Part shown: positions 1,004 to 60,340 of the stretch, piece by piece
Position numbering within the stretch: the first letter of the stretch is position 1
Layout: every line of letters starts with the position of its first letter
From: Malacoraja senta
Lineage: Eukaryota
Assembly: GCA_038087875.1 (NCBI GenBank)
Contig: CM075994.1
Coordinates: forward strand, 9,364,001-9,428,000
Direction: 5' to 3'
Length of the DNA stretch: 64,000 bases
The notes under the pieces: model-generated
Database searches by the model: none
What the model was told of the DNA's origin: nothing
The model's input: the letters and a program-made list of their open reading frames with translations, nothing else
Translations under genes and position numbers: made by a program

Positions 1004-1499
1004 ACAAACAGGTGGTTCCCATTGGCCCCGTTCCCCCAACGTAATATTCCACACTAACAGATAGCCCCTAACTGCCTCTTTTCCCCCCTCTTCTCCTCCC
1101 CTGCACACTCGCTCCCTCACCTCTTCCCTCCCTCTCCTTTCTTCTACCCTCAGCCACTCCCTCCTTCCCTCCATAACCCCTCTACCCTCCCTACACCCCT
1201 TGATGTAATTGAGGGGGGTAACACTGCTGAGGGGCAGACAATATGTAAATGAGATCCCATTGTGATGTCATCGTGGGGAGCATCACTGCTGAGGGGCAGA
1301 GTTGGTTTTAAGTGTTTTTAATGTTTTTAACGTGAATAACTTGTAAAAGGTTGGAACAATCTGAACAAAACTTATTTTTTGTCACATCACAGGACAATGG
1401 TGAGTATGGTGGTGCGAAAATTGTACTGCTATTGTGTACCGTTTTTGTGCAAATATAGGTACAATCTGGACAAACAAACAAGATGAGAGTTTTAGTAAT
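1004..1499 (-). mobile_element. Degenerate non-autonomous Helitron (unit A)
   Basis: Right end aagatgagagttttagtaat matches the family 5' terminus read on the minus strand; left end is a decayed copy of the 3' hairpin region seen at 3663, 7700 and 8917. Confidence 0.55.
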
Positions 1500-1504
1500 G
1501 CACT

Positions 1505-3208: not shown

Positions 3209-3247
3209 TGCTCTAGTACAGGGCCCGACTCTAGTAATAAGCTAAGG

Positions 3248-3339
3248 TAGACAAAAGTGCTGGAGAAACTCAGCGGGTGCAGCAGCATCTATGGAGCAAA
3301 AGAAATAGGCAACGTTTCGGGCCGAAACCTTTCTTCAGT
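3248..3339 (-). mobile_element. Penelope-derived repeat with hammerhead-like core (3311-3338)
   Basis: Minus strand reads CUGAAGA-AAGGUUUCGGCCC-GAAA-C-GUU followed by gcctatttc...gatgctgctgcacccgctgagtttctccagcac. Confidence 0.6.
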
Positions 3340-3662
3340 AAAAAGCTCTCGGGAATTGTCGGGAAAGCCGAGCCCGAGACGAGCGTGCGTCGACCTCGGA
3401 AGCACTCGGAAAGTCTCGGAAGCGCCTTCGGAAGCCATCGGGATGTGCAGAACAGAGCCACTTAGTTGTTCTTTCTGCGTCTTTTGAAGAATCGAGGGGT
3501 GGGAGAACAGAGGCTGCCCGTTGGAAATTCTGCGCAGCTTGCCAAGAGGAGCAAAGGCATTGTGACGTCATCCAGCTCGCTTCAGCATGTTAGATTTAAA
3601 AAATATGTCAGAGTGGTGAGGAATTTTATTAAAAAACTCGGGAAATAAAGAATCAAAGTATA

Positions 3663-8916: not shown

Positions 8917-9254
8917 TTAGACTAAGTGGGACACATTGGGTCCCATGTGAGTGCTGGTCCCCCATCGCAATATTCCACCTCTCCACTAATTCCAATATTG
9001 GTGGCCAGTGGGGGGGGGGGGCTTTCTTGAGCGCTAGTATGGGTGTTGTGGACTGAATGGACTGGCTTCCAGAGGGCTAGTATGAATATTGTGGGCAGAA
9101 TGGATTCTTGGCCAGGCAGCTCAGTCACTGAGGCCTGGCAGTACACTCTCTCGGACCTGGCAGGCTGGCAGCTGAGAAACTGCCAGAAATTCTGCCCAAT
9201 AACAGGTGACAGACTGTGAGAGAGAAGGGGGAGAGGATGGACTGAATGGATTAT

Positions 9255-9627
9255 TGGGCTGGCACTTCAGTCACTTATGGCTGGTAGGCTGGCAGTTCAC
9301 TTTCTCACGGCTCGTGGGCTGGCAGTGCAGTCACTCATGGCTGGTGGGCTGGCAGTTCAGTCACTTACAGCTGGTGGGCTGGCAGTTCACGTAGTCACAG
9401 CTGGTGGGCTGGCAGTTCAGTCACTTACAGCTGGTGGGCTGGCAGTTCACTTACTCACGGCTGGTGGGCTGGCTGTACAGTCACTCATGGCTGGTGGGCT
9501 GGCAGTTCAGTCACTGACAGCTGGTGGGCTAGCACTTCACTTAGTCGTGGCTGGTGGGCTGGCAATGCAGTCACTCTCGGCTGGTGGGCTGGCAGTTCAG
9601 TCACTCACAGCTGATGGGCTGGCAGTA
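9255..9627. repeat. 30-bp minisatellite inside Helitron F
   Basis: ~12 copies of ggctggtgggctggcagttcagtcactcac with alternating cagtcact/cacttact variants. Confidence 0.9.
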
Positions 9628-10029
9628 TCCTTAAAAAAATCGCAAACCGTACGTGGGTTTTGAATTGCATTTTACTCAGATGCAAGGCAAGGAATGGCAT
9701 AATTGTTAGCTGTTAATTGGACATAATCAACCTCAGCAAATTGACAATATCCTATTGACAGGGAGTGGATGTTTAAGCTGTCAGGCCATTTTATTATTTG
9801 CCAAAATATACATCTCAATATCATAATGATAGAAAACGTACTTTTCCACACCCCACTTGTAAGTCTGGGAGATTTTTTTAATGATAAATCTAGCTTCAGA
9901 AGCGTTTCTTTTGCATGTAAAAACCCACTTCAGAACCATGGGTGATTTTAGAATTTTACAGCCAGATTTATCACTTCTGAAACTTTTAGATACCAAAGGA
10001 ATCAAGAAAAAACACAAATAATGCCTTAC

Positions 10030-25822: not shown

Positions 25823-26224
25823 ATGATGACTTCTGAGATAAATTCTCAGATTTTCTTTGTTAAAATTTGACCGCTCAATCTCTATATTTAAATTGTCTCT
25901 TTTTTTATCAACAGCAAAGCGACATAAAAACGCAGTGAGCAGCAACAAGAGGCACAACAAGAAATAACTTAATAATTCTCATCTTTAACATTTAAATTGT
26001 TCTTATATTTTAAGTCATTCACATTTTAAACTTTAATAAATCCTTTTTCCACTTTTCATGCTTGCGTATTCTTCATCACAATGGGAACCTAATGGGCAGG
26101 AATGGCCACTGTGGGAGAACCACTAAGAGTGCATGTGGGGAGGTTGTGGGGAGATGGACTGAATGCGCGGGGGGGAGTGGAATGGCAAGGAGCAGAGTGG
26201 GGAGGGGGGGTGAAGGGAAGAGGG

Positions 26225-26580
26225 GTGACTAAGTGAACCGCCAGCGTACCAGGCGTGAGTGACTGCACTACCAACCCACCAGCCGTGAGTAAGTGAACTG
26301 CCAGCCCACCAGCTGTCAGTGACTGAACTGCCCGCCCACCAGCCGTGATTAAGTGAACTGCCAGCCCACCAGCTGTAAGTAAGTGCACTGCCAGCCCACC
26401 AGCTGTATGTGACTGAATTGCCAGCCCACCATCCATGAGTGACTGTACTGCCAGTCCACCAGCCGTGAGTAAGTGAACTGCCAGCCCACCAGCCGCGAGT
26501 GACTGCACTGCAAGCCCACCAGCCCTGAGTAAGTGAACTGCCAGCCCACCAGCCATAAGTGACTGAACTGCCAGCCCAAT
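26225..26580. repeat. 30-bp minisatellite, reverse complement of 9255-9627
   Basis: ~12 copies of gtgactgaactgccagcccaccagccgtga. Confidence 0.9.
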
Positions 26581-28047
26581 AATCCATTCAGTCCACCCTC
26601 TCTCCCTTCTCTCTCACAGTCTGTCACCTTTTGGGCAGAATTTCTGGCAGTTTCTCAGCTGCCATCCTGCCAGGTCTGAGTGACTGTACTGCCAGGCATC
26701 AGTGACTGAGCTGCCTGGCCTCAGTGACTGAGATGCCAAGAATCCATTCGGCCCACAATGTCTATACTAGCCCTCCGGAAAACAGTCCCTTCGGCCCAAA
26801 ACACCCATACTAGCGCAACAGAAAGTCTCCCAACCCGATAATAATAAGATAATAGTCCAAAACTTTGATAGCATGAAACGTCTTCCTCCATGTCCGATCA
26901 ACTCATTGATGTGTTGTAACAGCAATGTTGAAGTATGAAAATCCTTCAAAAGAATAACAGGATCTTTAACAATAAAGTTCACCGTTAAGTTTGATTTAAT
27001 GTCTGAGTCATTAGCAGGGATTTCAAATCCCATCTCAAGCCTTGGCCATTCTCTGTCTGGCTTGCAGAGAGATTTTAGTTCATTGATTCATTTCTTCTCG
27101 CTTAAGAAGCGGTTCACTGTCAGTTCTGTGGAAACTTCATTCGCAGAATTTTCTTCTGTGTCAACATATTTCAGTTGTACAACAATAGTAACTCCCAATG
27201 CTCTCTCCATTGGCAGATTGTCTTTGTCCAAATCCAACTCTCTGGTTTCTTTGGCTCTGTCATCTAGTGAAATGCTTTCACAATTGTCGCTGTCCTACTT
27301 TGAAAGTATAAATCCTCCCTTATTGCAAAGAGAAGTCAGATGTTCTACTGGTAGAATTGCTTCCTGCTCAGTAGACATAGATTTTAAGCAATCATCCTTG
27401 TAGAAGTTATTCTTCAAAGAGATTCTTCATTCATGAAATTTACTATTCTCGCCAAACTTGTGTCTCAAAGGCTGGGTACGTTGCTCTGCCATACGACGAT
27501 TATTCGGCAGATTAACACTTTCTTGTTTGAAAGGTAAGTCCCCACAACAGTGTCCATCAGTTTTCACTGAATAGTTCATAACATCCATGAACTTCAACTC
27601 TTCATTCGACATCGCTTCAGATGGTTTGCTGGTACTTTCATTAGAGTCATGATTGTATGGCTTCATCACCGACTTTTCTAATTCATCAGTAGATATTTGA
27701 TTAACAGCAATGGCAGGACAGTTCATCTGATTTCTGATTTCGTGGTTCCTTTTCAAGGAGCCATAGATAACCCATCAAAGTCGGGTTTTTGTAGCATACG
27801 GTCCTTCCCCTTGGCTCCTAACAATCTGTATAGGTTCCAAAGCCTTCAAAACATTCATTCCGATCAGTAGATCAACACTAGAATTTATTTGACTTCCGGT
27901 GGCGCTATGGAGGCATAAAGCCCAGCGTCAACTAGCTCCGTGCTGTAAATCTGAAAACGGGAGAAAAATCGGGACTTACCTGTGGCGACTGCGATTTGAA
28001 CGGCTGCCTGCTGCGAGTGACGTCATCAGGCGAGCGACTCTACCGGT

Positions 28048-29080
28048 ATGTCGATGCAACATACCCCCCCCAGGGGGACAAAAAAGGCCGGTAAAGCAAA
28101 AGAACCGACGGAAGAGGTAGGCCTAACCGAGGCCTTGGCCTCAGGTGCAACGATGCCCCAGGAAGACACATTGAAGAAAACAAGGCAAAAAAAATCGGAA
28201 GTTGAAGAACTTAAAAACTTTCTCACCATTGAAATTAAAAATATTCAAGTACAGTTGAAAGCCTTTGAGAAAAAGCTGAATTTTAAAGAGGAACTTAACT
28301 CTTTTAAGGTAGATTTTAAAGCAGAAATGATTTCTACCGTCCAAGGCATACTGGAGGATTGGAAGGGGTCAGATGGAAGAGGTGGAAGACAGGATCACTT
28401 CGGTGGAATCGAACCTTAATGAAAAGTTGGACCCCATCCATCTGATATTGGATCAACAAAATACAGCAATAACTGAACTAGAGAAATGTGCTGTGACAAG
28501 TGCGGAAACTGTAAATCGACTCCTTACCGAAAATCAACGCCTCTCCGAAATGGTGACTAAACTAAGTGGAAAGTGTACTGACCTGGAGGGGTGTCAAAGA
28601 CGCCAGAACTTAAGAATTGTAGGTGTTAAAGAAGGAAGAGAGAGGGGTACTGGCCCTCGGGATTTTGCGGCAGATTTACTACAAAAAGCCCTAAAATTGG
28701 ATCAAAAACCTTTACTTGGTCGAGCACATAGAGCGCAGGGGCGTCGTACACGAGATGATGCTCACCCAAGACAAATTATAGTAAAGGTGCAACTTGATCA
28801 CGAATTTGATGATATAATGAAGAAAATTGTCCGTAGCAGAGAGCTCTATTTTGAAGGAGAGAGGATCAGTATCTACCGAGACTACCCGGCGGAGGTGTTC
28901 AAGAAGAGAGCGCTGTTTACTGGGACAAAAAGAATACTGAGGAACATACCTGATTTGAGATACGGCTTGATTTATCCCGCAACACTAAGAGTCACCTACA
29001 AAGAGAAGGAGCAACTTTTTATAGACCATGAAAAAGCACTGGAATATGCCAAAGGCATCGGGAATGTGACCACAGACTGA
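28048..29080 (+). pseudogene. L1 ORF1 (coiled coil, RRM, CTD), one frameshift near 28370
   Basis: DLEGCQRRQNLRIVGVKEG, RAHR, IYRDYP, YGLIYPATLRV. Confidence 0.88.
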
Positions 29081-30054
29081 ACAATATACATCACTCCCCA
29101 GGAGTCAAGGAGCAACGGGACCTTGCCAGGTCTAAAAGGAACTTTAAAGTACTTTTAAGAACTTTAAGGACTACTGAAAATTGAAAAGGACATTGGAGAA
29201 AACCTGGGTTTTTTTTTCTCTCTTAATTTCTTCATTTTTATATTCATCTTTTGTGTTTAGTATAAATTCCAAGAACAATAATATCACAGTTATTGTTAAT
29301 TGTTACTAATCACTATTACTATTTAGTATATTCACATTTAACCATACATTTAACTACTAATACTTATTAAATATCAATATTACTACTAAATTTATTAACA
29401 TCTATATTATTCATAAATATTTCCTATTGTGTATGATTACTAACAATGATTAATAACTAACAGTTTCTGGTTAACGTAGAAATAGTTTATATATATATTA
29501 TATGATTATAAGTAAGAGTTAATTTAGCTCATGTATTAATAAGGCTTGATGGTTTTTCTCTTTATTTTTCAACTAAAAATTAAAAATACATACTTAAAGA
29601 GGATATTAACACGGTATTTAGAGAATAATGATGTTGTTAACTAAGGAATTAACAAATCCTTTTGTTTAATTTTTTTTGTTACTCCCAAAGAAATTATTTT
29701 ATTGTTAAAAATATTTTCATTATTTTTTTGGAAAGCACGGAGCTAGGATTTTTTCTTTTACAAAGGCTACGGAAGTCTTTAGAATTCTAGCCACGCTAGT
29801 GTGGCTATCACTAACTACACTAATTGTAGATGTAGTTTCTTTTCTCTCTCACTATACTAACCAATTATATTACTTCTTTCACTTTAAATATTGTTATAAT
29901 TTTAAGTTTGAATGGAACTTCAAGATTAATTCAAGGAGATGTGTTCGGAAGAGCGATGTACGTAATTTAAAATTCATCTATCTGAGGTTCGGGGACAGGA
30001 TCAGGTCTTGTGTGTTGTACCTTCTGCTCGGTTATAGACCACCCTAGAAACAAT

Positions 30055-33000
30055 ATGCAAGATGGTAATATGACAAGAGGGGGTGAAGGAATAATGTTTT
30101 GTAGTTGGAATGTTAAGGGAATTAATGAACCAATTAAGAGAGGTAAAGTTTTAGCACATTTAAATTCACTCAAGACAGATATAATATTCCTCCAAGAAAC
30201 ACACCTTAAAAAGGAATCACAACATAGACTAAAAGCTAAGTGGATTGCTGAAGCGTACCATTCCTCTTTTTCACACAAGTCCAGAGGAGTTGCAATATTA
30301 ATTCGTAAAGGGATATCTTTTACTCATTCATCAACAATAGCGGATATTGATGGTAGATATATTTTATTAGTTGGAGAGTTAAATGGAAAAAAAGTGATTC
30401 TTCTTAATGTATATGGACCAAATTTTGATAATCCTATGTTTTTTAATAAAACATTTAATATAATCCCAGAATGTACACAATATAAATTAATAATTGGAGG
30501 AGACTTAAATTGTACATTAGACCCTTATTTAGATAGATCATCAAGGCAAAAAAAAGTTAAATCTCAATCAAATGTATTTCTAAATTCATTTATTAATACC
30601 ACTAATATTAAGGATGTCTGGAGAATTGAAAATCCAACTGGACAGGAATATTCACTTTTTTCACCGGTACATAAAACATACTCAAGAATAGACTATTTTT
30701 AAGTTGATTCAACGTTTATCCCATTTACTTATAACTCAAAATACCATAATATTATAATCTCAGACCATGCACCTTTAACATTTATGATTAAATTAAATGG
30801 AATGGCCGAGAAACAAACATATTGGAGACTTAACCCACAAATCTTGAATGAAAGATCATGTCAGGAATATCTTATTAAACAGATTCAAACATTTTTTGAG
30901 ACTAATGACACCCCTGGCACATCTGTTTCTCTTATTTGGGAAACATTTAAAGCATTTGTACGAGGTGCATTAATTTCCTCCCAAGTATTTTATAACAAAG
31001 AGAACCGGATTAAACAACAGACATTGGAAAGGGAAATAAAGCAACTAGAATTAGAAAATGCGACAATGCCATCTATGTTAAAACATAATAAAATCGCTGT
31101 ATTGAAATATAAATTAAACAAAATGTATTCAGAACAAGTAATAAAACTTTATCAACACACTAAACAATTACATTTCAAATTCGGAGACAAACCACAAAAA
31201 CTATTAGCACGTCAGCTCCGAAAATTGGAGGGGGAAAAAATAATTCATAAAATTAGATCAGATACGGGAGAATTATTAAAACTGCCTAAGGATATAAACG
31301 AGAGATTTCTCCAATACTATCATAATCTTTATTCAACTAAAACTATAGAACTACCGGAAGGAATAGCAGAATTTTTACAAAAATGTAATTTACAAAGGTT
31401 TAGACTCAAAAGATAGATAATTATTAGAAGCTGAAATTACGATAAAAGATATTGAAGAGTCTATTAGATCTTTAAAAAATGGTAAAGCAGTAGGTCCAGA
31501 TGGTTTAGGATCTGAATTTTATTTAAAAATTTACGATTTGCTCTCTCCACGTTTACAAATACTGTATGAGTATATTTATACTCAACAGAAACTCCCAGAT
31601 ACCTTAAACGAATCTATAATAACACTTATACCAAAGGCTGATAAGGATCCTGAAGATCCAGGATCATATAGAGCAATTGCACTTTTAAATACAGATCAGA
31701 AAATACTAACTAAAATTCTAGCGCACAGATTAAGTACAGTGATGAATAAATTAATACACCCTGACCAAACAGGCTTTATTCAAAAACGGTATTCATATTT
31801 TAATTTGAGACGATTATTTAATATAATATACTCAAAGAGAATCACTAATGAAGACCTAGCAATAATCTCACTTGTTGCCGAAAAAGCTTTTGATCAGGTT
31901 GAATGGCCCTATTTATTTTCGGTGATGGAAAAATTGCAACTGGGCGAGAAATTCTGCGCATGGATAAAACTGTTATATACTAACCCAATGGCTAGAATAT
32001 TAACAAACCAAAGGTTATCATCTAAATTTAACCTATCTAGAGGTTGCAGACAAGGTTGCCCGTTGTCTCCACTATTATTTGCGCTTGCTATTGAGCCCCT
32101 CGCAGAAAGAGTTAGGACCCACCCGGAAATATATGGGTATAATACAAAGGACACAGTGAATAAAATTTCTCTATATGCAGATGATGTATTAAATTACATT
32201 ACAAAACCAGAAATGAGTGTTCCAAATTTATTAAAGCTAATAACCCAATTTGGTTCACTCTCTGGATAGAATAAATTGGAATAAAAGTGAAATTATGCCA
32301 ATAAGGGAACATAATAAACATATACTACAACAATTCCCGTTTAAAATAGTAAATGAAAAATTTAAATATCTAGGAATTTATGTCACTAAGACATATACAT
32401 CAGCGCTATATAAATAAAATGTATTATTATTATTATTATTATTATTATTTAAATCAAATTTCCCCCCATTACTGAATAAACTACATAAGAATATTCAGTA
32501 CTGGAAAACACTTCCTATCTCAATGGTTGGTAAAATTAATGCCATAAAAATGATTTTCTTACCGCAAATATTATACCTTTTTCAAACTATTCCGATATAC
32601 TTGTCAAAAAACTTTTTCAAAAAGTTGGATTCCATTATCAGTGACTTTATCTGGGATTATAAGAATCATAGGATAAGCAAAAAACATCTGTGCAAATCAA
32701 AAATAAATGGAGGTTTAGTTCTACCAAACTTTTTGTTTTATTTTTGGGCAGTTAACATTAAAAATATGAATTTTTGGTTGAAAAAAATAGATCAACAACC
32801 AGATTGGTTAAAAATGGAAAAGGAAGATTGTTTACCTTTTGAAATCGGCTCGATACTATTTGCTACTTCTAAATTAAACAAAAAAATTGATAGGGAAAAT
32901 CCTATAATATATAGTGCTATGCGAATTTGGAAACAATTAATAAAGACATTAAAATTAGATAATTTATCACTTTTTCTTCCAATTGTGAATAACCCTTTAT

Positions 33001-33908
33001 TTAAACCCTCATGGTTGGATAAAGGTTTCACACAATGGAAAAATTATGGAATTAAAATGATGGGACAACTTTACAAAGAAGGCACTTTTCTTTCATTTCA
33101 GGAGCTGCAACAGACTTATGGACTTCAAGTAAATGATTTTTTCAGATATCTTCAACTTAGAGATTATGTAAAAGCAAGTAAAAACTTTAGAATTAGAAAT
33201 TCAGAAATTCTTGATGACTGTTGGAATAAACACCCTAATACAGAAAAATTTATATCTTACATATATAATATTTTATTAGATAGCGAGATTCCATCGACGG
33301 ATTTACACAGACAAACATGGGAAAAAGAACTAAATCAAATAATAACGAAAGATACTTGGGAAGAAAGTTTACAACACATACATCAATGTTCATTAAATGC
33401 CAGACACTCTCTAATACAATTCAAAGTACTACATAGGTTACATTATTCTAAAACAAAATTAAATAAAATCTTCCCACATATTTCCCCTATACGTGATAAA
33501 TGTCAACATTTAGATGCTAACTTAACTCATACGTTTGCGAATTGTATAAAAATTAAAAAATTCTGGGCAAATATTTTTAGAATAATATCTATAGTTACCA
33601 GCACTCAATTGGACCCGGATCCAAAATTAATAATACTAGGAATATTAGAACCAAATCAAACATTTACAGCAACTCAAAGAAACTTTATTGATTATAGTAT
33701 AATAACTGGGAAAAAATTAATTCTAAAATTTTGGAAAGGTCCTATATCCCCCACAATTAAAATGTGGATTATAGAAATGACGGAGACCTTACACTTGGAA
33801 AGAATTAGATTTGTCCTGTTGGACAAACAAGAATTATTTGTTGGAACATGGTCTCCATTTATTGATTATCTAAAGGGTCAGAATGGTTCTGCACGGGAAC
33901 CTGACTAG
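30055..33908 (+). pseudogene. L1 ORF2 (APE-RT), several frameshifts and stops
   Basis: SWNVKG, FLQETH, GGDLN, YSRIDYF, RQGCPLSPLLF, LYADD, split across the ORF track. Confidence 0.92.
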
Positions 33909-35711
33909 CACTCGAGACAAGGATTAGATGAAATGTTATACTCTGAAATGTACGAACATATCTCGAATGAAGTTTTTTTTAGTAAGTTATTCCATTCTTC
34001 TCTATTATCTCTTTCTTTTTTTTCTTTTCTTTTCTCTCTTTTCTCTCTTTCTTTCATCTATCTTTTTATTTCTACTTACTTTAAAAAAAATTAAAAAATC
34101 ATTGGAGACAACGTGAATAATGTTTGACAATATTATTAATTTAGAAATGAAAGACTGGTAACGATTTTAATATGATATGTATTTACCTCCAATAAAAAAT
34201 ATTATTACAAACACTAGAATTTATTTCAGATATCTTGACATCCTTCAGGTAAGGCCATTGTATAAAATTCTTTATGTCTTGGTATATTTTAACGACCAAC
34301 AGGCATAGTTCCATGCGGAAACACTTCAGATATCGGTATGAAATTATCTTCATCCAGACTGGATATCTCCATATTTATAATACAACGACTCATGCTCTCT
34401 TTATCTTTAGTCATGGTACGTAATCGAATCGAATCCTAGTCTCTTCTCTGATATTCAGCCTTCTCGTCAGGTTTTCTGTGCAAAAGGTAGTCGAATTTCA
34501 GTGATCCACAAAAGCATATGTTTGCAACACTGTATTCGTTTTACTGTTCCTTCCTTGCACTGGTAAGATTGAAAAATTACGAGCTTCTACCCCGGCCCCA
34601 ATATGAGCAGTTACTTGAGGCGAGGTGATAGCATTTCTAGTAATTAGCTTCTCGCCCTCTTCTGTTTGTTCCGGCTCATCTTCTTCTATTTGCTCTGGTA
34701 TTTCATCATCCGTTTGTTCCAGTTCTTCTTCTTCTTCTTCATGGCGCTCTAGCAGCTCTTCTTCAGTGTGAAGTGCTTCAGGATGATATTGATTGCACTT
34801 ATAACAAATTATAGGACACTTACAGTCTCTTACCATATGTCCTTTTTTCAAACATCCAAAACAGATGCCCTTCTCTTTCAAGAAATCCACCTTGTCTTCA
34901 TATTCTTTCATCTTCAATCTACGACACCATCTTATGGAGTGACCAACTTCATCACATAACAAACAAAATGCTATTTTGCTTGCTAGTGGACACATTTATT
35001 TTTCTTTCATCTGTCTTTTCCACAGGTCTGGTAGTGATAGCAAAATTACTTCTCTTAGGTTCAGATCTTCCTTCAGTTTTGGAAAAGGTAAAACCTTTGT
35101 TAGTTGCCATTGGTTTGTAATCTTCAATATTCCCGTAGTGTTGGTCTAACATGTTCCGTACTTCCCTGTCCAAGAATTCCACCAGGTCTGGTAGCCTGGC
35201 TACTTGTTTCCTCTCATCTCTAATTTTGCCTGCTTCATCTCTACACTTTTCTCTCAATCTTCTGGGCAACATGCTCAAGATGATTCTAGTATTACTCGCA
35301 AGATTCATTTCCTCCATGTAGCCGAGATTTTTAATCGAGCTGCAACATTCTCACAGAAATATTGCATAATCACTCAATTTTTCCCTCCTGGCTTGATTTC
35401 TTTCCAAGAATGGGCCTTCTCAATGTATGCGTTCGCAATCCTCTGTTCATCACCAAAACATTCTTTTAGTAATCTTCTCGCCTTTTTATAGCCCTGGTTG
35501 CCTGGCTCCATCTGACAACTTTTAACAAGTACCTTCACACTACCACTTGTGTACTTCACCAGAAATCGTAAGCGCTCTTTTTCATCCTTAACTTTCGTCA
35601 CTAATACCTCCTCTAGTGCCCCTACGAAAGCTTCATACTCCAAAGGATCTACACCTTACGTAGGAATTTCTACTGATGGTAAAATGAGAGAGGTATTTTG
35701 TCGAGCTATAA

Positions 35712-37887
35712 TACATAGAAACATAGAAACACAGAAAATAGGTGCAGGAGTAGGCCATTCGGCCCTGATCTATTCAATATGATCATGGCTGATCATCCAA
35801 CTCAGTATCCTGTACCTGTCTTCTCTCCATACCCCCTGATCCCTTTAGCCACAAGGGCCACATCTAACTCCCTCTTAAATATAGCCAATGAACTGGCCTC
35901 AACTACCTTCTGTGGCAGAGAATTTCACAGATTCACCACTCTCTGTGTGAAAAATGATTTTCTCATCTCTATCCTAAAAGACTTCCCCCTTATACTTAAA
36001 CTGTGACCCCTTGTTCTGGACTTCACCAACATCGGGAACAATCTTCCTGCATCTAGCCTGTCCAACCCCTTAAGAATTTTGTAAGTTTCTATAAGATCCC
36101 CCTCAATCTTCTAAATTCTAGCGAGCACAAGCTGAGTCTATCCAGTCTTTCTTCATATGAAAGTCCTGCCATCCCAGGAATCAGTCTGGTGAACCTTCTC
36201 TGTATTCCCTCTATGGCAAGAATGTCCTTCCTCAGATTAGGAGACCAAAACTGTACGCAATACTCCAGGTGTGGTCTCACCAAGGCCCTGTACAACTGCA
36301 GTAGAACTTCCCTCCTCCTATACTCAAATCCTTTTGCTATGAATGCTAACATACCAATCGCTTTCTTTACTGCCTGCTGCACCTGCATGCCTACTTTCAA
36401 TGGCTGGTGTACCATGACACCCATATCTCGTTGCATCTTCCCTTTTCCTAATCGGCCACCATTCAGATAATAGTCTACTTTCCTGTTTTTGCCACCAAAG
36501 TGGATAACCTCACATTTATCCACATTATACTGCATCTGCATTGCATTTGCCCACTCACCCAACCTATCCAAGTCACCTTGCAGCCTCCTAGCATCCTCCT
36601 CACAGCTAACATTGCCCCCCAGCTTCGTGTCATCCGCAAACTTGGAGATGTTGCATTCAATTCCCTCATCCAAATCATTAATATATATTGTAAATAGCTG
36701 GGGTCCCAGCACTGAGCCTTGCGGTACCCCACTAGTCACTGCCTGTCATTCTGAAAAGGACCCGTTTACTCCTACTCTTTGCTTCCTGTCTGCCAGCCAG
36801 TTCTCTATCCACATCAATACTGAACCCCCAATACCGTGTGCTTTAAGTTTGCATACTGATCTCTTATGTGGGACCTTGTCGAAGGCCTTCTGAAAGTCCA
36901 GATACAACACATCCACTGGTTCTCCCTTATACACTCTACTGGTTACATCCTCGAAAAATTCTATAAGATTCGTCAGACATGATTTAACTTCATAAATCCA
37001 TGCTGACTTTGTCCAATGATTTCACCACTTTCCAAATGTGCTGCTATCCCATCTTTAATAACTGACTCTAGCATTTTCCCCACTACCGATGTTAGACTAA
37101 CTGGTCTGTAATTCCCCGTTTTCTCTCTCCCTCCCTTTTAAAAAGTGGGGTTACATTAGCTACCCTCCAATCCTCAGGAACTACTCCAGAATCTAAAGAG
37201 TTCTGAAAAATTATCACTAATGCATCCACTATTTCTGGGGCTACTTCCTTAAGTACTCTGGGATGCAGCCTGTCTGGCCCTGGGGATTTATCGGCCTTTA
37301 AACCATTCAATTTACCTAACACCACTTCCCGGCTAACCAGGATTTCACTCAGTTCCTCCATCTCATTTGACCCCCGGTCCCCTGCTATTTCCGGCAGATT
37401 ATTTATGTCTTCCTTAGTGAAGACAGAACCAACGTAGTTATTCAATTGGTCTGCCATATCCTTGTTCCCCATGATCAATTCACACAGTTTCTGACTGCAA
37501 GCGACCTACATTTGTTTGAACTAATCTTTGTCTCTTCACATATCTATAAAAACTTTTGCAGTCCGTTTTTTATGTTCCCTGCCAGGTTTTTTTCATAATC
37601 TATTTTCCCTTTCCTAATTAAGCCCTTTGTCCTCCTCTGCTGGACTCTGAATTTCTCCCAGTCCTCTGGTAGGCTGCTTTTTCTGGCTAATTTGTATGCT
37701 TCATCTTTTGTTTTGATACTATCCCTGATTTCCCTTGTTATCCACGGATGTGCTACCTTCCCTGATTTATTCTTTTGCCAAACTGGGATGAACAACTGTT
37801 GGAGTTCATCCATGCAGTCTTTAAATGCCTTCCATTGCATATCCACCGTCAACCATTTAAGAATCACTTGCCAGTCTATCTTGGCCA
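35712..37887 (-). mobile_element. CR1 LINE, 5'-truncated, inserted in BEL gag
   Basis: RT ORF fragments 36089-37888 and tail acatagaaacatagaaac; BEL gag resumes on both sides. Confidence 0.93.
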
Positions 37888-38899
37888 TCGAATAATCTCG
37901 TTGAATTCAGATTGCCTATTCAACAGTGCCAATAATCCATCCTGATAACTCTGGCTTGGCTCCACCTGTTGATAAAGAGGCCTTTGTGATTCAAACTGGC
38001 TTGCTCGAGCCTGTGTACCAGGCCTCGAAAAAGCGTGGTCCGCTATTGGTTTGTCTCGAGCATCCACAGACGCTCCAATAGTAATTGGTTTCGATCTAGT
38101 ACCCATTTGCTGAAATGAAGTTTTACCCATCTTATTCTGTTCCAATGGGATTTTCAAAGCCTAGAAATTCAATGGATCTCGATTGTGGAATTGTTCCAAC
38201 TGTTGATTCACTTTGAGCAGTTTTCTCTCTCGGTCCAGAGCTCATCGTTCTCGACGATCTAGAGCTGCATCTTGACCCCTCACTTTCCAATATGTCCTTC
38301 CTGGCTTTGGCCACCGCCATCTTTGTGTCTAATTCCAGTTGTTCCTTATATCGCGTCATCTATTCTCGCTGTCGAGTCATCTCTTGCGTCATCTCTTCTT
38401 GCTGTTGCGTCATCTCTCGCTCGATCTCATGTTTTTTCTTCATGGCATCCGCTTCTATATCAGCTTTTGCTCCCAATTGAGCAGAAGCCCTCGAAACCGA
38501 ACTGGCTGAGCAACCAGATCTGCAGCCTGATTTTCTTGAAGATACATTTGAGATACTGTCTCCCGGTGCAATATCACCGTATTGCACCGACAGACTTCTT
38601 CTTCTTCTTGCTTAGCATCTCCTTTTCTGTAACATTCACTTTGGTTAACTTCAGCTAACGATTTTTCTGCAACTTCCATGAATTCATCATAATACTCCGT
38701 ATTTTCTGAATACCACTTATAATGTCTTTCACGTTCCTCTTGAGATTGCTCTGCTTCCAGTAGTGTGTCCTGCTTTTCTTTAAGTTCATTATTAAGACTA
38801 CGTATCAGTCGTAATTTATCCTCCACATTATCCAGGTTGGCATCTGATTCCATGGCTACCTTCACACTTTCAAGCAGCCTTCTAATCCTCTTCCACAAC

Positions 38900-39323
38900 T
38901 CGCTAGAATTTAGGAGATTGAGAGGGGATCTTATAGAAACGTACAAAATTCTTATGGGGTTGGACAGGCTAGATGCAGGAAGATTGTTCCCGATGTTGGG
39001 GAAGTCCAGGACAAGGGGTCACAGCTTAAGGATAAGGGGGAAATCCTTTAAGACCGAGATGAGGAAAAACCTTTTCACACAGAGAATGGTGAATCTCTGG
39101 AACTCTCTGCCACAGACGGTAGTTGAGGCCAGTTCATTGGCTATATTTAAGAGGGAGTTTGATGTGGCCCTTTTGGCTAAGGGGATCAGGGGGTATGGAG
39201 AGAAGGCAGGTACGGGATACTGAGTTGGATGATCAGCCATGATCATATTGAATGGCGGTGCAGGCTCGAAGGGCCGAATGGCCTACTCCTGCACCTATTT
39301 TCTATGTATCTATGTATCTATGT
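38900..39323 (+). mobile_element. Short CR1 3' fragment inserted in BEL gag
   Basis: SLEFRRLRGDLIETYK...GTGY* and (ctatgtat)n tail; splits KETESDR|ELWKR. Confidence 0.92.
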
Positions 39324-40355
39324 TCTATCCGATTCGGTTTCCTTCACCATGACATCCGCTTCTATTGAGAGCGCAGCTAACTCAGCTTTAACTCCCAGTT
39401 GAGCAGAAGCCCTCGAAACAGAACTGGCTGAAGAACCAGATTTATATCCTGAACTATCGGAGCTGCAACTGCAGCCTCTGCTACTGCTGTCGGCTCTTTT
39501 GGCCACAGACTTTGCAGGCAGTAATGAAGGCTTGGCCTTTGCCATTCGTAGTTGGGCTACGGGGGTCTTCAACTGAGGCTCTTCATCGCTTGAAGACTCT
39601 TCGGTATTTTCAGAATCGGACTCGCTGTCTGAGCTGGTACTGGCCTTCTTGGCCGCAGGCTTCTGAGCGGCAGCTGCCGCCTTGGCCAGCGTAGGGTCAG
39701 CTTTCCTCTGTGCAATTGTTGTGGCAGGTTTTAGGGTTGCCTCTTCATCACTACTGCCTGAGCTGTCGTCTGACAAGTCACTGATTTCCATTTTACTCAC
39801 TCCTGCGGCTAGTTTCTTCTCGGTCACGCCTGCTTTTCCATTCTGAACTTTGGGAGATGGTACAGCACTGTACAAACCTTGTTGTGCTTTGCCTTTCGCA
39901 GGAGACTCATCATCTGATCTATCAGACTCTTCACTGCTTGAACTTTCATCTTCCATTCTGGCACCTTGTTGCTTCGCACTTCCAGCTACTAAGCTCGTAA
40001 CTTGTGACATAGTTTCAGATAGCCAGTTCTCTGCCTTATCGATGAAACCATTAAATAACTTCCACTTGTCTTCCCACCACTGGGTGTGTCTTCTATCTTC
40101 TTCCCGAGACAGCTGTGAAAACAGCAGTACATTCTGTTTCTTGCCAACCTCCTGGTAGAGGTTCCATAGTTGGCTCATATTAGATTGCACCTTGATCGCG
40201 TTCTCTTCTGATTCCATTAGTTTCTTCTGTGTATCAATTAATCTGTTAACCTGCGACCATAATTCGTTTCTCTCTCTCTTGGTTTCTCTCAAACAAGCAG
40301 CTAGTGAAATATCTGTTTCTTTGTCTGGGTCTTTCTTCACCACCACGTGGTCCAT
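39324..40355 (-). CDS. BEL gag N-terminal ORF containing a Nopp140/NOLC1-like segment
   Basis: Stop-free 345-aa ORF: helical gag module, alternating acidic-serine and K/A/P blocks (aa ~135-302), then SASSVSRASAQLG. Cut at its 3' end by the CR1. Confidence 0.65.
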
Positions 40356-41633
40356 CTGGCATAGCTCATTCTTCTTCTAATTTCATGATTTTAAAGGGGT
40401 CTTGGCAGATTGCCAAGTCTTTAAATTAATCGAACAAAAGTCTCTGCTAGTAGTTGTGGCTTTGTTTTGTCAACATTTCTTTCAAAATCATAACATACTG
40501 ATAATGTAGAGAACACCTCTCTAACTCCAGGTGCAAAAAGAATGATGCTAATTCAAATGGAATGCGCTTATCACAAGCAATTCAAAACAATCCAAGGTCG
40601 GTCTGTTTTCCCCAGACAACCTGGAGAAAACACCTTCTGAGTTCTCTGTTACAGAAGTCTTTTAAAATAAAGCTGTGATTTCAATTCAAAGAGTAATAAT
40701 CGATTTGTACTCACAAATCCAGTGATACGTCTTCAGATACGTCTTGACGCTATAGATAGACCTCAAGGCCCTTCTCTGGCCGAGATCTAGTTCCTCCTGG
40801 AACCACTTTCTTCTGGCTAAAACCTCTCCGAGAATCTTAGCCAATCTTTTGTTTTCATCTCTGGGACTTGTTTGGCTCCTGTGATGGAGGTCTTCTTCGA
40901 TTTAATCTTCTGTCCCTCTCTCTGAGACTGGTATTTAACCCCCCTGCCAGAGGTTGCCTTCTACTTAATGTATCGGCAGATTTTCATATCTTTCAGGTAA
41001 TTAGCACCCTAGCCGCTATTTGGATGAGAATGGTTGAAGTGGGAGTCTTCTAAACGCATGTGAGCTCACTCACAGAGACCTTCAGAGCTTCTTCTCAGAT
41101 ATGGCTTAAAAACACAGTCTTTCGATGAATAAATGCTTTTATTGTTGATAGAAAACAGTAAGATACATTAAGTTTCTTCCGACTAGGAAACTCCTCGTGT
41201 CTCCGTAACACTGGCAAGATCCGCATGATCCCGCATGATCTCCTTTAGATTTCCCATAGACCCTGCATGGCCCGCATGGTAGAAGGGTTAACCTTCCCCC
41301 ATTGTCTCTCCAAACTAACCAAAAAAATTAAACTTCTGCGCAAGCATCTAAGCTCCAAACACGCCCCAAAACACATCATAAATCCACCCACAATATAACG
41401 GGCAGTCTAAAATTTAAAGGCATCAATGACATGCAAAACAGGCCAAATGGCCACAACATTAAGGTCAAGACTGCTTTATCAAAGGGAGCTGAGGGAATGC
41501 TCTGTGTTCTGTTTCACAGAGACATGGCTCACCCCAAGCTCCCCAGACTCAGCGGTCCAGCCTGAAGGGTTCTCCATCCACCGTATGGACCACATCTGGG
41601 AAATGGAGAGGAGGGGGCGTCTTGGTCAACTCT

Positions 41634-44315
41634 TTTTTTTATTTATTTTTATTTTTATTTTATTAGAAGTACAATTGTATACAATCATATTTTCATAATA
41701 CATTTTATGTACAGCTTCTTATTTTTTTAATTTTTATAATAAAGAAGAAAAAGAAAAATAAGTTAGATAATGAAATATAGAAAAATGTGTGATATATAGT
41801 GTGTGGAAAAGAAAAATAGAGAGTGAAAAAAGAAAGTTAAAGAATAGAAAATAGGAAAAAGAGAATAAAAGAAGAAAAGGGAAGAAAAAGAAAAAAGAAA
41901 TAAGGAGATCTTATTTATAATCTTGACCATCCCTCGCCCAGTCACGAGTTAGCTTTTACAATTGTGTTGGACCATATGATTCCAAAAAGACGACAAATGG
42001 AGACCAACTCGTTGTGAATTGGTCAAATTTATCTATTAGGAGGAATCGCATTTCCTCAAGATGTGCGGTGTTCAACATACTTGCAATCCACATTTTGAGC
42101 GTTGGTATTGGTGTATTTTTCCAAAATTTCAATATTAATTTTGTTGCTATTATTAAACCATAATTAAAAAATATTTTTTGAGATGGATTCAATTTATTCC
42201 CATCTTCCATTACCCCAAATATAATCAATTCATTATTAGGTTCCATTTTTATCTTAAATAATTTTGTGAATATTTTGAAAATATCACTCCAAAATCTATA
42301 AAGTTTTATACAGGAAACAAAAGAGTGTGTTATAGTTGCATCTTGGATTAAACATTTATCGCAAGTGGGGGATATATTTGGGTAAAATTTATTTAATCTT
42401 GTTTTTGAGTAATATAATCTATGTAAATTTTGTAATTGAATTAGATTATGCCTTGCATTAATCGAACATTTGTGAATGTATGTCAAATACTTTTCCCATG
42501 TAACCTTTGTAATTTTTATCATTAATTCCCGTTCCCACTCTTCTCTAATTACCTCTGTCGCAGGTAAATCTATATTTAAAATACTATTATATAAATATGA
42601 TATTAATTTTTGTGTATCAGCTTTAATATTCATTACTTCTTCCAATAAATCAGGAATTATTTTTTGATATCCTTGTATGTATGTCTTCAAGAAATTGCAA
42701 ATCTGAAAATATTTAAAATAATGATTGTTTTTCAATTTACATTTTAATTGTAATTGTTGAAATGATAGTAAATCTCCCATTTCATACATGTCCCCGATCC
42801 TTTTAATTCCTAAACTTTCCCATTGATTATATATTTTGTCCATAAGAGATGGTTTAAATAAAGGATTATTTGCTATCGGTGTTAACAATGATAGGTTTCT
42901 TAATTTTAAGGATAATTTTATTTGTTTCCATATTCTTATTGTATCTTGTATAATTGGGTTCTTCTTATATATTGTATTGTTCATTTTTTTCGGGGAGAAG
43001 AGGATCGTTCCTATATTACAAGGGTAACAATCCTCTTTCTCCATTTTTATCCATTCTGTCTGTTGGGTTGAACTATCCAACCAGTAAATTATATTCTTAA
43101 TATGTATTGCCCAATAGTAATACAGAAAATTCGGGAGTGAAAGTCCCCCGACATCTTTTGGTTTACATAAGTGTTCTTTTTTAATTCTATGTGATTTATA
43201 GTCCCAAACAAAATTAGTAATATTAGAGTTTAATTTAGAAAAAAAATATTTTGGTACATATACTGGTATAGACTGAAATAGGTATAATAACTGTGGTAGA
43301 AAGATCATTTTTATAGCATTTATTCTACCTATTAATGATAAAGGAAGTGTTTTCCAAAATTTAATCATTATATTAAGTTTATTTATTAAAGGTATAAAAT
43401 TGGCATTGAATAAAGCTTTATGTTTTCTAGTAATCTGAATACCCAGATATTTAAATTTTTCTGTTGCTATTTTAAAGGGGAACTTCAGTAAGTGTGTGGA
43501 TTCTTGAGGTTTTAACGTCATGATTTCACTTTTGTTCCAATTTATTCTATATCCAGAAAAGGACCCAAATTCCTCTATTAAGTTTAATAAATTTGGTATG
43601 CTCGTTTGTGAGTTTGTTATATATAACAGAATATCGTCTGCACATAATGAAATTTTATTATTTGAGTCCCTAGTATTATAACCCTGAATATTCGGATGAC
43701 TTCTTATACTTTCAGCCAAAGGTTCTATCATAAGGGCAAATAGCAGGGGTGATAAAGCACATCCCTGCCTATTATCCCTTGATAATTGAAATTTTTGAGA
43801 TAACATACTATTAGTTAATATTCTTGCCATCGGTTTATCATATAATAATTTCACCCATGTAATAAAATTCTCTCCCATATTAAATTTTTGTAATACTTTG
43901 TATAAATACTGCCATTCTACCTGATCAAATGCTTTCTCTGCATCCAAAGAAATAATTGATATGTCTTCTTCCTCCACTTTATGTGAGTACATTATATTGA
44001 ACAGGCGTCTCAAATTATTAAATGAATATCTTTTGGGTATAAACCCCGTTTGATCAGGGTTTATCAATTTACTAATATATTTGCTTAATCTTCTAAAGTC
44101 TTTGCTAAAATTTTCTGATCTGTATTTAAAAGTGATATAGCTCTATATGAGCCCGGTTCCTCTAGATCTTTATCTTTCTTTGGAATAAGCGTGATAGTTG
44201 ATTCTGCTAATGTTTCAGGTAATTTATTTTCTTTAAAAGTGTGAGTATATAAATTAAATAAATAGGGAGTCGTTATCTCATGAAATTTTCTATAAAATTC
44301 ATTACTAAAACCATC
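41634..44315 (-). mobile_element. 5'-truncated L1 with an uninterrupted 703-aa RT/C-terminal frame
   Basis: ORF 41956-44067 (DQTGF, SLDAEKAFD, RQGCALSPLLF, CADD, CDKC...H...C); poly(A)-like tail at 41634; tggtcaactct duplicated at 41623-41633 and 44324-44334. Confidence 0.92.
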
Positions 44316-48327: not shown

Positions 48328-48509
48328 GAGTGAATAAAAGAAAGAAAAAAGAGAGGAATTTAAAAAAAAAATTGTGTGTGTGTGGAATTCTCTGCCTCAG
48401 AGGGCGGTGGGGGCCGGTTGTCTGGATGCTTTCAAAGAGTTAGATAGAGCTCTTAGGGATAGCTGGGTTAACTGGGATATGGAGAGAAGGCAGGAACGGG
48501 GTACTGATT

Positions 48510-49167
48510 AGATACATAGATACATAGAAAATAGGTGCAGGAGTAGGCCATTCGGCCCTTCGAGCCTGCACCGCCATTCAATATGATCATGGCTGATCAT
48601 CCAACTCAGTATCCCGTACCTGCCCTCTCTCCATACCCCCTGATCCCCTTAGCCAAAAGGGCCACATCTAACTCCCTCTTAAATATAGCCAATGAACTGG
48701 CCTCAACTACCCTCTGTGGCAGAGAGTTCCAGAGATTCACCACTCTCTGTTTGAAAAAGTTTTTCCTCATCTCGGTCTTAAAGGATTTCCCCCTTATCCT
48801 TAAGCTGTGACCCCTTGTCCTGGACTTCCCCAACATCGGGAACAATCTTCCTGCATCTAGCCTGTCCAACCCCATAAGAATTTTGTACGTTTCTATAAGA
48901 TCCCCTCTCAATCTCCTAAATTCTAGCGAGTATAAGCCAAGTCTATCCAGTCTTTCTTCATATGAAAGTCCTGACATCCCAGGAATCAGTCTGGTGAACC
49001 TTCTCTGCATTCCCTCTATGGCTATAATGTCCTTCCTCAGATTTGGAGACCAAAACTGTACGCAATACTCCAGGTGTGGTCTCACCAAGACCCTGTACAA
49101 CTGCAGTAGAACCTCCCTGCTCCTATACTCAAATCCTCTTGCTATGAAGGCCAACATACCATTCGCT
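48510..49167 (-). mobile_element. CR1 3' fragment inserted in another CR1 tail
   Basis: ORF 48606-49184; host tail split at actgatt|gtgggtgatcagcc. Confidence 0.9.
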
Positions 49168-58617: not shown

Positions 58618-59414
58618 ATCTATCTATCTCTGACGTAAAAATATCAATTCACTTGGCCTCCACAGCCTTCTATTGGAGTTACTGAAGCTGTAAATATACG
58701 TAACCAGCTCCAAAACATAATTCAAATTAATAACAAACAAAAAAGAAAAATGGAAGCAGAATAAGGCCATTCTGCCCATCAAGTCTACTCCATCATTCAA
58801 TCACGGCTGATGTATCTCTCCCTCCTAAGCCCATTCTCCTGCCTTCTCCCCATAACCTCTGACACCCGTACTAATCAAGAATCTATCTGTGCCTTAAAAA
58901 AATATCCATTGACTTGGCCTCCACAGCCGTCTGTGGCAATGAATTCCTCAGATTCACCCTCCTCTGACTAAAGAAATTCCTCCTCATCTCCTTCCTAAAG
59001 GAGCGTCGTTTAATAAGTGAACTCGGTATCACAACTGCCCAGGTCATGGGTCATTCGGGATAAACACTCTCGCCAGCTGAGCGACTGTGTGTGTACGGAC
59101 CTGCGTATTCATTTCAGTGAGATTTATAAATGAACTAGACTAAGTGGGACCCGTTGGATCCCTGCTTCACACGGGAGGGCTGATCCCCCAACACAATATT
59201 CCACCTTTCCACCAATTCCAATATTGGAGGCGTACTGGAGCGCTAGTATGAATGTTGTGGGCTGAAGGGACTGGTTTCCAGAGGGCTAGTATGGACATTG
59301 TGGGCCGAATCGATTCTTGGGCTGGCAGCTCAATCACTCAAGCCTGGTGTGCTGGTAGCTCACTCACTCACGGCTGGTGGGCTGGCAGTTGACTCACGGC
59401 TATTCCCTTGAAAT

Positions 59415-59795
59415 TCCATTTCAGGCAGGGTGCAAGGCCGCCAAGTACAAGTGCAGTTTCATGCCACTTCAGGCAGGGTGCAAGGCCACCAAGCTCAAGT
59501 GCAGTTTCATGCCACTTCAGGCAGGGTGCAAGGCCACCAAGCTCAAGTGCAGTTTCATGCCACTTCAGGCAGCGTGCAAGGCCGCAAAGCTCAACTACAG
59601 TTTCATGCCACTTCAGGCAGCGTGCAAGGCCGCCAAACTCAAGTGCAGTTTCATGCCACTTCAGGCACGGGTGCAAGGCCGTCAAGCTCAAGTGCAGTTT
59701 CATGCCACTTCAGGCAGCGTGCAAGGCCGCCAAACTCAAGTGCAGTTTCATGTCACTTCAGGCAGTGTGCAAGGCCGCCAAGAGCAAGTGCACTT
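59415..59795. repeat. 48-bp minisatellite inside Helitron H
   Basis: ~8 copies of ttcaggcagggtgcaaggccgccaagctcaagtgcagtttcatgccac. Confidence 0.92.
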
Positions 59796-59814
59796 TTCAA
59801 TAAGGCAACACAGC

Positions 59815-60340
59815 TGTTGCATTTTCAAACCAAAGGCAAAGGCCTCACAATTTTGCATTTTCAAGCCAAAGGCAAAGGCCTCACACTTTAGCATTTTCAA
59901 AAGCAAAGGCCACACACTTTAGCGTTTTCAAAGCAAAGGCCACACCTTTAGCGTTTTCAAAGCAAAGGCCACACACTTTAGCGTTTTCAAAGCAAAGGCC
60001 ACACACTTTAACGTTTTCAAAGCAAAGGAACACTTTAACATTTTCAAAGCAAGCAACACTTTAGCACTTTCAAAGCAAGCAACACTTTTAGCTAGCATTT
60101 TCAAACCTTAAAAACACTTTTAGCAAGCATTTTCAAACCAAAAAACACTTTTAGCAAGCATTTTCAAAGCAAAAAAACACTTTTAGCAAGCATTTTCAAA
60201 GCAAAAAACACTTTTAGCAAGCATTCTCAAAGCAAAAAACACTGTTAGCATTTTCAAACCAAAAAACACCTTTAGCATTTTCAAACCAAAAAACACTTCT
60301 GCATTTTCAAACTACATTTTCAAACTACATTTTCCAAACC
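59815..60340. repeat. Graded 14-36 bp tandem array inside Helitron H
   Basis: Recurrent gcattttcaaa core with a progressively changing spacer. Confidence 0.9.

Follow-up and report, generated by a model that had tools for sequence, protein, structure and literature searches.

A pol-poor BEL/Pao retrotransposon of Malacoraja senta with host-derived, likely NOLC1, sequence in frame within Gag

Analysis of a 64-kb window of the Malacoraja senta genome (64,000 nucleotides; GCA_038087875.1, contig CM075994.1, positions 9,364,001 to 9,428,000) and of related loci indicates that a pol-poor BEL/Pao element probably acquired three collinear pieces of a host sequence, likely the NOLC1 mRNA, by template switching, and that these pieces, placed in frame in a disordered linker of Gag, spread most likely as a tolerated passenger. 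The segment is of foreign origin, has defined breakpoints, preserves the reading frame, occupies a disordered-linker position and is dispersed with separate target duplications among copies with mosaic flanks.

Organization of the window copy

The minus strand of the window contains a stop-free frame (39318-40376) of 352 amino acids from stop to stop, or 345 from the first methionine, as reported in an earlier note on this DNA. At the place given there, three acidic-serine blocks alternate with K/A/P-rich blocks, between flanks that align to P0002, a named 910-aa BEL Gag-protease from Leucoraja erinacea which itself lacks the Ser/Lys segment. The limits proposed in that note (39450..39953) lie within 10 bases of the breakpoints recovered here (39449-39944), and the second gag module is indeed without the segment. 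The first methionine of the frame is not the element's own start, and its end is the CR1 insertion at 39322; upstream of a lesion near 40321, the native N-terminal part of Gag is read in a different frame that contains a stop. The GC content is 0.515 in the segment and 0.40-0.42 in the flanking gag. CK2-type S/T-x-x-D/E sites number 13 in its 164 amino acids (7.9 per 100), as compared with 7.6 per 100 in a bird NOLC1 fragment and 1.1 in BEL Gag. In a single-sequence structure model (mean pLDDT 55, mostly 65-92 in the N-terminal helical block, and used in outline only) three long helices (residues 21-143) are followed by disorder over the segment and then by a further helix (320-349).

The window copy is dead, with a misframed native start, two CR1 fragments, an L1 and additional frameshifts (Table 1). 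The near full-length L1-type element (27891-34209) has its ORF1 at 28331-29080 and its ORF2 in pieces up to 33908. The CR1 3' fragment at about 38898-39322 is 99% complementary to 48509-48931, which suggests a recent CR1 wave, later than the BEL insertion. No 3' LTR of the copy was found within the 64-kb window.

Table 1. Parts of the BEL/Pao copy in the window and elements nested in it
Feature	Position	Strand	Basis
5' LTR of BEL/Pao element	40969..41458	-	matches both ends of full copies (TG...CA, 5-bp target duplications)
Gag N-terminal helical domain, module 1 (ORF residues 21-143)	39948..40316	-	32% identity to BEL Gag P0002
Tract of host origin, probably the NOLC1 repeat region	39449..39944	-	empty-site alleles and non-element contigs matching here alone
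Captured piece A: first acidic block and YSAVPP motif	39829..39944	-	donor contig records X6, X17
Captured piece B	39608..39833	-	donor record X6/19: 808-926, then 1096-1321
Captured piece C	39449..39602	-	donor contigs; last 28 bases by eye from loose ends
Element's own Ser-rich linker end and coiled-coil start	39323..39448	-	77% identity to P0002 158-204; predicted helix 320-349
CR1-type LINE 3' fragment between modules 1 and 2	38901..39322	+	missing from other two-module copies
Insert-free second N-terminal module with the gag downstream of it, frameshifted	37892..38900	-	mapping of copies on window
CR1-type LINE fragment nested in gag	35713..37891	-	other copies join 37892 to 35712; RT-like ORFs
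Gag DUF1759 region, zinc knuckle, protease start; several frames	34210..35712	-	tblastn of P0002 on copies; weak zf-CCHC match, E 0.059
L1-type element nested in protease region	27891..34209	+	16-bp target duplication
Protease end and short pol remnant	26846..27890	-	mapping of copies

The window also holds features outside this copy. Just beyond the 5' LTR, a 728-aa open frame on the minus strand (41956-44142) with RVT_1 and zf-RVT domains represents a second L1-type fragment. Related 30-bp and 48-bp tandem repeats occur at 9195-9674, 26174-26638 and 59288-59844, two of the arrays being inverted and 16.6 kb apart, and a pure G/A repeat of about 2.4 kb, built on a unit of 15-18 bases, occupies positions 1448-3900.

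The segment is foreign to the element

A search of the genome with the insert DNA recovered 41 matches at 87-95% in 40 loci, to which a search with the insert protein added four. At these loci, at least 44 in number (about 38 without near-duplicates), the insert is in frame with identical breakpoints. Empty relatives are frequent: the insert is missing from its site in 8 of 30 loci found with the N-terminal domain and in 17 of the 20 further stretches taken, and a junction pattern that recovers 15 of 17 known empty loci and none of 43 insert loci detected at least 96 empty junctions genome-wide. Empty elements have the same flank as far as the codons for M-E-D-E and rejoin it at K-S-G-S-S-A-S-S. 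From one shared junction base to the other, 491 bases replace 41 bases of the element, a net gain of 150 codons. Within the LTRs the host tract takes the place of part of an internal ORF, and it has neither a poly(A) nor a target duplication of its own.

Even empty elements are Ser-rich at this site, a property that would suit growth of the segment in place from this linker, a course that the earlier note had itself raised as an alternative. Such expansion is ruled out by the all-or-none state of the insert, its fixed breakpoints and its nucleotide-level match, found in three organisms, to a longer contig not belonging to the element (see below); no intermediates between the two forms were seen beyond a few deletion derivatives with partial inserts, which excludes a gradual process. 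The converse transfer, from element to host, conflicts with the presence of a motif of the segment in tetrapod and other NOLC1-family proteins and with the closeness of basal copies to the donor, so that expansion and reverse transfer together are scarcely credible.

One cluster of insert copies has a distinct history: five copies on a single contig (L063 and L070-L073; C18, 1.18-1.47 Mb) with one common truncation and 97-99% identity reflect local segmental duplication rather than separate jumps.

Probable identity of the donor

Twenty-four public runs were listed via the last exon of NOLC1, and four of them, from three organisms (A, B and C), were aligned to positions 39330-40400; the runs are presumed to be RNA, none of the 24 being recorded as such and one (X3) being marked 'probably DNA'. 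Every one of the four provided one long non-element contig (2193, 1310, 2163 and 1771 bases) that matches only inside 39478-39944. Identity at the nucleotide level is about 88-92%, each piece having 6-28 differences (for example 14 in 125 bases, 26 in 226 and 12-13 in 116). Nucleotide-level similarity to a host sequence, on which the proposal of the earlier note depended, is therefore present. The match consists of three collinear pieces separated by in-frame gaps. Pieces A and B are joined over a 5-base overlap with 174 donor bases (58 codons) skipped, and between B and C a net 387-405 bases (129-135 codons; raw skip 392-416) are skipped inside an acidic-serine block, all of these skipped lengths, 174 and 387-405, being multiples of three. 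Loose contig ends at 39944 in all four runs encode A-K-A-A-A-A/S-T-A-K-E in the frame of the insert, an Ala/Lys-rich spacer, and those at 39478 in two runs lead into a serine block, 17 of the first 18 letters of which agree by eye with 39449-39466. The donor contigs (1.3-2.2 kb, two abutting ones summing to about 2.7 kb) run on beyond the segment in Ser/Ala/Lys coding sequence, and from this continuous coding character we infer that they represent mRNA.

The same runs contain low-depth element contigs with empty joints in two organisms. In organism A, a 187-base contig spans the B/C joint with no skip and bears the element's letters at diagnostic sites, implying that the insert form exists there too. 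Among 40 of 202 rows, the element shares the letter of organism C, and not that of A and B, at four sites, and the letter of A and B, and not that of C, at four others, which suggests that the capture is about as old as the split between A+B and C, or older.

The capture of host exonic sequence in frame, as the earlier note had it, is borne out as far as host coding sequence is concerned by the empty sites, shared breakpoints and donor contigs, and the identity of the gene can be argued from motif and architecture, which make NOLC1 very probably the donor. The insert displays alternating acidic-serine and K/A/P-rich repeats with CK2 sites, and contains a YSAVPP motif, noted in the course of this analysis, for which no published mention was found. 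The motif is exact in 5 of 14 intact insert translations and one change away in the others, including the window copy. Motifs of this type are conserved in tetrapod and other NOLC1-family proteins; the form Y[ST][AS]VPP occurs in 5 of 120 proteins bearing the SRP40_C domain, one of them a named bird NOLC1, many of the remainder being too short to include it. With serine blocks masked, the local-alignment score of copy L037 to a lizard protein (P0072) was reached in 1 of 500 block-preserving shuffles, and that of the window copy in 4 of 500; for L037 against P0065 and P0082 the counts were 3 and 8 of 500. For 7 of the 10 NOLC1-family targets, several of which lack the motif region, at least 22 of 500 shuffles scored as high, which is not clearly above chance.

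A single locus with the SRP40_C domain, the C-terminal domain of NOLC1, is present in the genome, on a 56.8-kb contig (C5830) that ends 1.5 kb above the last exon. Only the last two NOLC1 exons were found in the assembly (L021-L023, C5830); searches of it with the insert DNA and protein, a reptile LisH exon, lizard NOLC1 and two donor-specific 30-mers did not find the central or 5' exons. Interruption of NOLC1 by the contig end fits this absence of the donor exons. The lizard NOLC1 search returned the two 3' exons and one insert copy at E 9.6, and eight further match regions of the insert search comprised six element copies and two chance matches. P0003, a protein with a 100% match to the last exon, was considered as a source of upstream exons and set aside, being an intron-containing ORF from which none was gained.

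Searches for a named donor protein were blank. The whole ORF against longer proteins gave BEL Gag alone, and the insert region had no match at E<=10 among 6134 candidates, none by phmmer among 1.84 billion representatives, no usable one in an Atlas search and no Pfam family above cut-off for the window insert; low complexity renders these blanks uninformative. Along with the lack of a join between the donor contigs and SRP40_C exons, the failure of phmmer and homology searches to name a protein leaves some room for a treacle/TCOF1-like paralogue or another Ser/Lys repeat gene as the donor. The sole genome match of the Treacle model (PF03546) is one insert copy, at a borderline 23.1 bits (21.9 in another search; cut-off 23). 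The model did not match the window insert, and no TCOF1 locus was found in the genome. Such a donor is improbable: the bird NOLC1 fragment itself matches Treacle weakly (E 0.9), the YSAVPP-type motif lies in SRP40_C-bearing proteins including a named NOLC1, and the lengths of the contigs, singly and in sum, presumably suit NOLC1 better than treacle. The zebrafish gene named nolc1 has, moreover, been described as encoding treacle-like domains (PMC3266255, PMC10980799).

The carrier family and its coding capacity

The structure of the element was derived by mapping 40 and a further 20 10-kb genome stretches on the window. The carrier is a BEL/Pao element of roughly 6 kb, comprising a 0.5-kb LTR, gag-protease, 1.1-1.4 kb with short pol remnants, and a second LTR. 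A complete pol (RT, RNase H and integrase) is absent, with only the short remnants present in insert and empty copies alike; this suggests that pol was lost before the capture, or that the loss itself spread by recombination. Pol-bearing BEL elements, which could provide the enzymes in trans, are plentiful elsewhere in the genome (150 scored of 803 candidates). Copies of the family align along P0002 at about 50-80%. Pfam searches of P0002 recover DUF1759 above cut-off and weak protease matches, and a profile search for DUF1759 in the window's own gag fragments gave no match. The LTRs are of the TG...CA type, both ends being seen in 12 of 41 insert stretches; 11 of the 41 have their own 5-bp duplication, and both ends with a 5-bp duplication were found in 3 of 17 empty stretches. 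Stretches without both ends are either truncated copies or longer than the 10 kb taken. With or without the insert, the family as a whole is a gag-protease-only BEL lineage under purifying selection during its spread, which is non-autonomous and seems to package itself.

A second, insert-free N-terminal module is present in 9 of the 35 independent copies analysed, including the window copy, and the frame is preserved across its joint in 5 of the 8 stretches inspected. This tandem arrangement (window 38436-39339; L038, L041, L044, L056, L063, L069) appears to be a duplication via recombination with a diverged relative.

Spread, recombination and selection

In basal insert copies the polymorphic sites agree with the donor in up to 9 of 9 cases (L064), which indicates transfer from host to element and continued change of the insert in replicating lineages. 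In a small, non-random sample (sites from 40 of 202 rows), 8 of 9 changes derived relative to the basal copies are non-synonymous. Divergence within LTR pairs is 2.4-9.4% in insert copies (median 5.1%, n=19) and 2.8-5.6% in empty ones (median 3.3%, n=10), and empty copies outnumber insert copies at least 2 to 1. Diversity is lower in the insert (0.080 as against 0.105-0.112), as expected from its single origin. For trees and selection counts, seven near-duplicate loci and two or three partial rows were left out, and the partial insert copy L068 was wrongly entered as empty in the trees and in one set of counts. The insert and empty labels require 6 changes on the tree of the N-terminal flank and 11 on that of DUF1759, the latter value being as low in 150 of 500 shuffles. 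Monophyly of the insert copies on flanking gag was set aside as a test, the labels being intermixed on both trees, a pattern that may be read as recombination between co-packaged RNAs.

Selection was assessed by taking variants present in at least three copies as a proxy for changes during replication and singletons as post-insertion decay; the reference copy has four stops and a short out-of-frame stretch, which add noise. In the downstream gag-protease the shared pN/pS is 0.51 as against 0.90 for singletons (p=0.0004, 37 copies), and 0.45 as against 0.77 in the 23 insert copies (p=0.006). In the insert the corresponding values are 0.48 and 0.86 (p=0.064), or 0.59 and 0.87 without CpG sites (p=0.47). 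A singleton value near 0.86 denotes ordinary decay after insertion. The shared value of the insert is no higher than in the N-terminal domain (0.48-0.55), and stops common to several copies are confined to CpG sites; power is low (26-53 shared variants). Thirty-five copies have no shared stop in the insert and a 1-base deletion common to two; a TGA at one CpG codon in five copies is scattered on the tree and is best read as repeated decay. Collection of further copies and computation of selection, which the earlier note had called for, thus uphold retention of the frame, while amino-acid constraint on the insert is not significant. Weak selection on the insert may exist, and the sequence evidence leans against strong selection. 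The constraint on gag-protease suggests that Gag was still being made, and the insert, lying within its frame, would then be translated; this is weakened by the mosaic flanks, since constraint downstream of the insert may have arisen in empty elements.

The segment had also been claimed to be better preserved than the rest of the element. It does have fewer lesions, at 2.05 per kb, than three stretches of gag (3.04, 5.53 and 2.69), but intact copies are about as frequent for the insert (14 of 35) as for the N-terminal domain (13 of 31), and any better preservation appears weak. Both parts are intact in 5 of 31 copies, and hence the open frame of the window copy is not exceptional.

Proposed mechanism of capture and alternative explanations

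In the mechanism considered probable here, reverse transcriptase supplied in trans by a pol-bearing BEL would have jumped from the element RNA to a co-packaged host mRNA and back at microhomologies of 1-4 bases. Two internal donor stretches would have been dropped in frame, the first at a splice-junction-like joint and the second by a jump between serine blocks. By eye, the microhomology is one exact base at the 5' joint (3 of 4 alike), 3-4 bases at the 3' joint and 5 at the A/B joint, the outer joints being too short to exceed chance. If gag-protease is needed in cis, only an in-frame product in the flexible linker would have continued to replicate, and recombination with empty relatives could then have moved the insert among backgrounds. 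The short microhomologies would equally fit end-joining, and the host sequence might have entered a single copy as DNA, by break repair or gene conversion from a large exon or processed pseudogene, before being retrotransposed. This is improbable in view of the sense orientation, the three collinear pieces, the in-frame skips and the AG|G-type first joint, and of the resemblance to known template-switch captures, which substitute for part of an internal ORF (PMC5131818).

Given the same capture, the three Nopp140 repeats might have benefited the element: after phosphorylation by CK2 they could bind NLS-rich disordered tails and draw Gag or its particles into nucleoli, Cajal bodies or condensates, or else aid import. 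The fusion protein would be a CK2 substrate, its site density equalling that of NOLC1, and one to three phosphorylated repeats of human Nopp140 bind NLS-type tails in pull-downs (PMC12951762). The frame held at both breakpoints and both internal joints, the virtual lack of shared disabling changes across the 35 copies and the number of loci reached are in line with such a role. Against this, amino-acid constraint is not significant, empty elements are the more numerous and their LTR pairs somewhat younger, retention of the frame is explained by the need for downstream gag, and nothing shows a benefit to the element. A useful module is hence unlikely, and a tolerated passenger is preferred over it because there is neither a sweep nor clear constraint. 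The phospho-regulated nucleolar or condensate function proposed in the earlier note is accordingly hypothetical.

A value at the RNA level can also be envisaged, wherein resemblance to the host would protect the element against silencing, or the stretch would give rise to small RNAs against the host gene, as in Drosophila telomeric elements. NOLC1 is not known as a piRNA-pathway gene, the insert drifts away from the host sequence and its copies are a minority. While the identity of about 90% to the donor resembles that of the telomeric captures, those captures are mostly of piRNA-pathway genes (PMC13534243), and this explanation is very improbable.

Relationship to known systems and implications

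Gag-oncogene fusions of acutely transforming retroviruses likewise place host mRNA in frame with gag in pol-defective, helper-dependent genomes. In these the captured gene usually takes the place of the remaining genome, and selection favours it for its activity, whereas the present insert is of low complexity and internal, the capsid, knuckle and protease are kept, and amino-acid constraint on the insert is not significant. The maize LTR retrotransposon Bs1 is reported also to have host sequence fused to gag. It resembles the present element in having transduced pieces of host genes (PMC7264820), and differs in drawing on several donor genes and in being a plant Copia-type element.

LTR-mediated retroposition is known in animals, including the Pao elements BATUMI and BEL18_AG, where partial host mRNA lies in an LTR element with part of an internal ORF replaced (Tan et al. 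2016, PMC5131818). More than two switches and non-autonomous further spread are shared with those cases, in which the switch points show microsimilarity (PMC5131818). Here, only 41 bases are replaced, gag is open on both sides and at least 44 loci are occupied, as against two Drosophila cases with more than one site in that work (Tan et al. 2016), the species survey of which is without cartilaginous fish (PMC5131818). The Drosophila telomeric TART/TAHRE-type captures are similar in having host fragments at about 90% identity in an amplifying family, and differ in being non-LTR, in their piRNA-pathway donors and in their higher copy number, the capture lineage here being a minority (PMC13534243). 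With the central repeat domain of NOLC1/Nopp140, the repeats of which bind NLS-rich tails once phosphorylated, the insert shares the alternation of acidic-serine and K/A/P-rich blocks and the dense CK2 sites (PMC12951762); it has three full blocks and part of a fourth in place of ten, and no LisH or SRP40_C domain. No report of such a capture was found in the open-access literature, and supplements and repeat libraries may list the family. LTR-mediated capture is known in itself, and what differs here is a near-pure in-frame insertion into a still-constrained gag, a condensate-type domain and spread to dozens of sites in a vertebrate.

It is doubtful, though conceivable, that a vertebrate LTR retrotransposon thereby gained a working nucleolar-condensate module of three CK2-phosphorylated Nopp140 repeats, which would direct Gag or its RNA into nucleoli or Cajal bodies, would have been kept through tens of rounds of retrotransposition and would have been passed among backgrounds by recombination in the manner of a mobile domain. 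In any event, the family is an unusually clean fossil of host-gene capture, in which the empty parent, the donor sequence, the breakpoints, the skips, a basal-to-derived series and dozens of insertions are all present. The capture implies that the donor mRNA met BEL particles in the germ line. That a Gag linker took up 150 extra charged, disordered residues while the element replicated points to a route by which condensate-type domains may be shuffled onto capsid proteins. If the repeats changed the location of Gag, this would be a rare gain of a host condensate module by a retrotransposon; if they did not, it would be a measured case of neutral tolerance.
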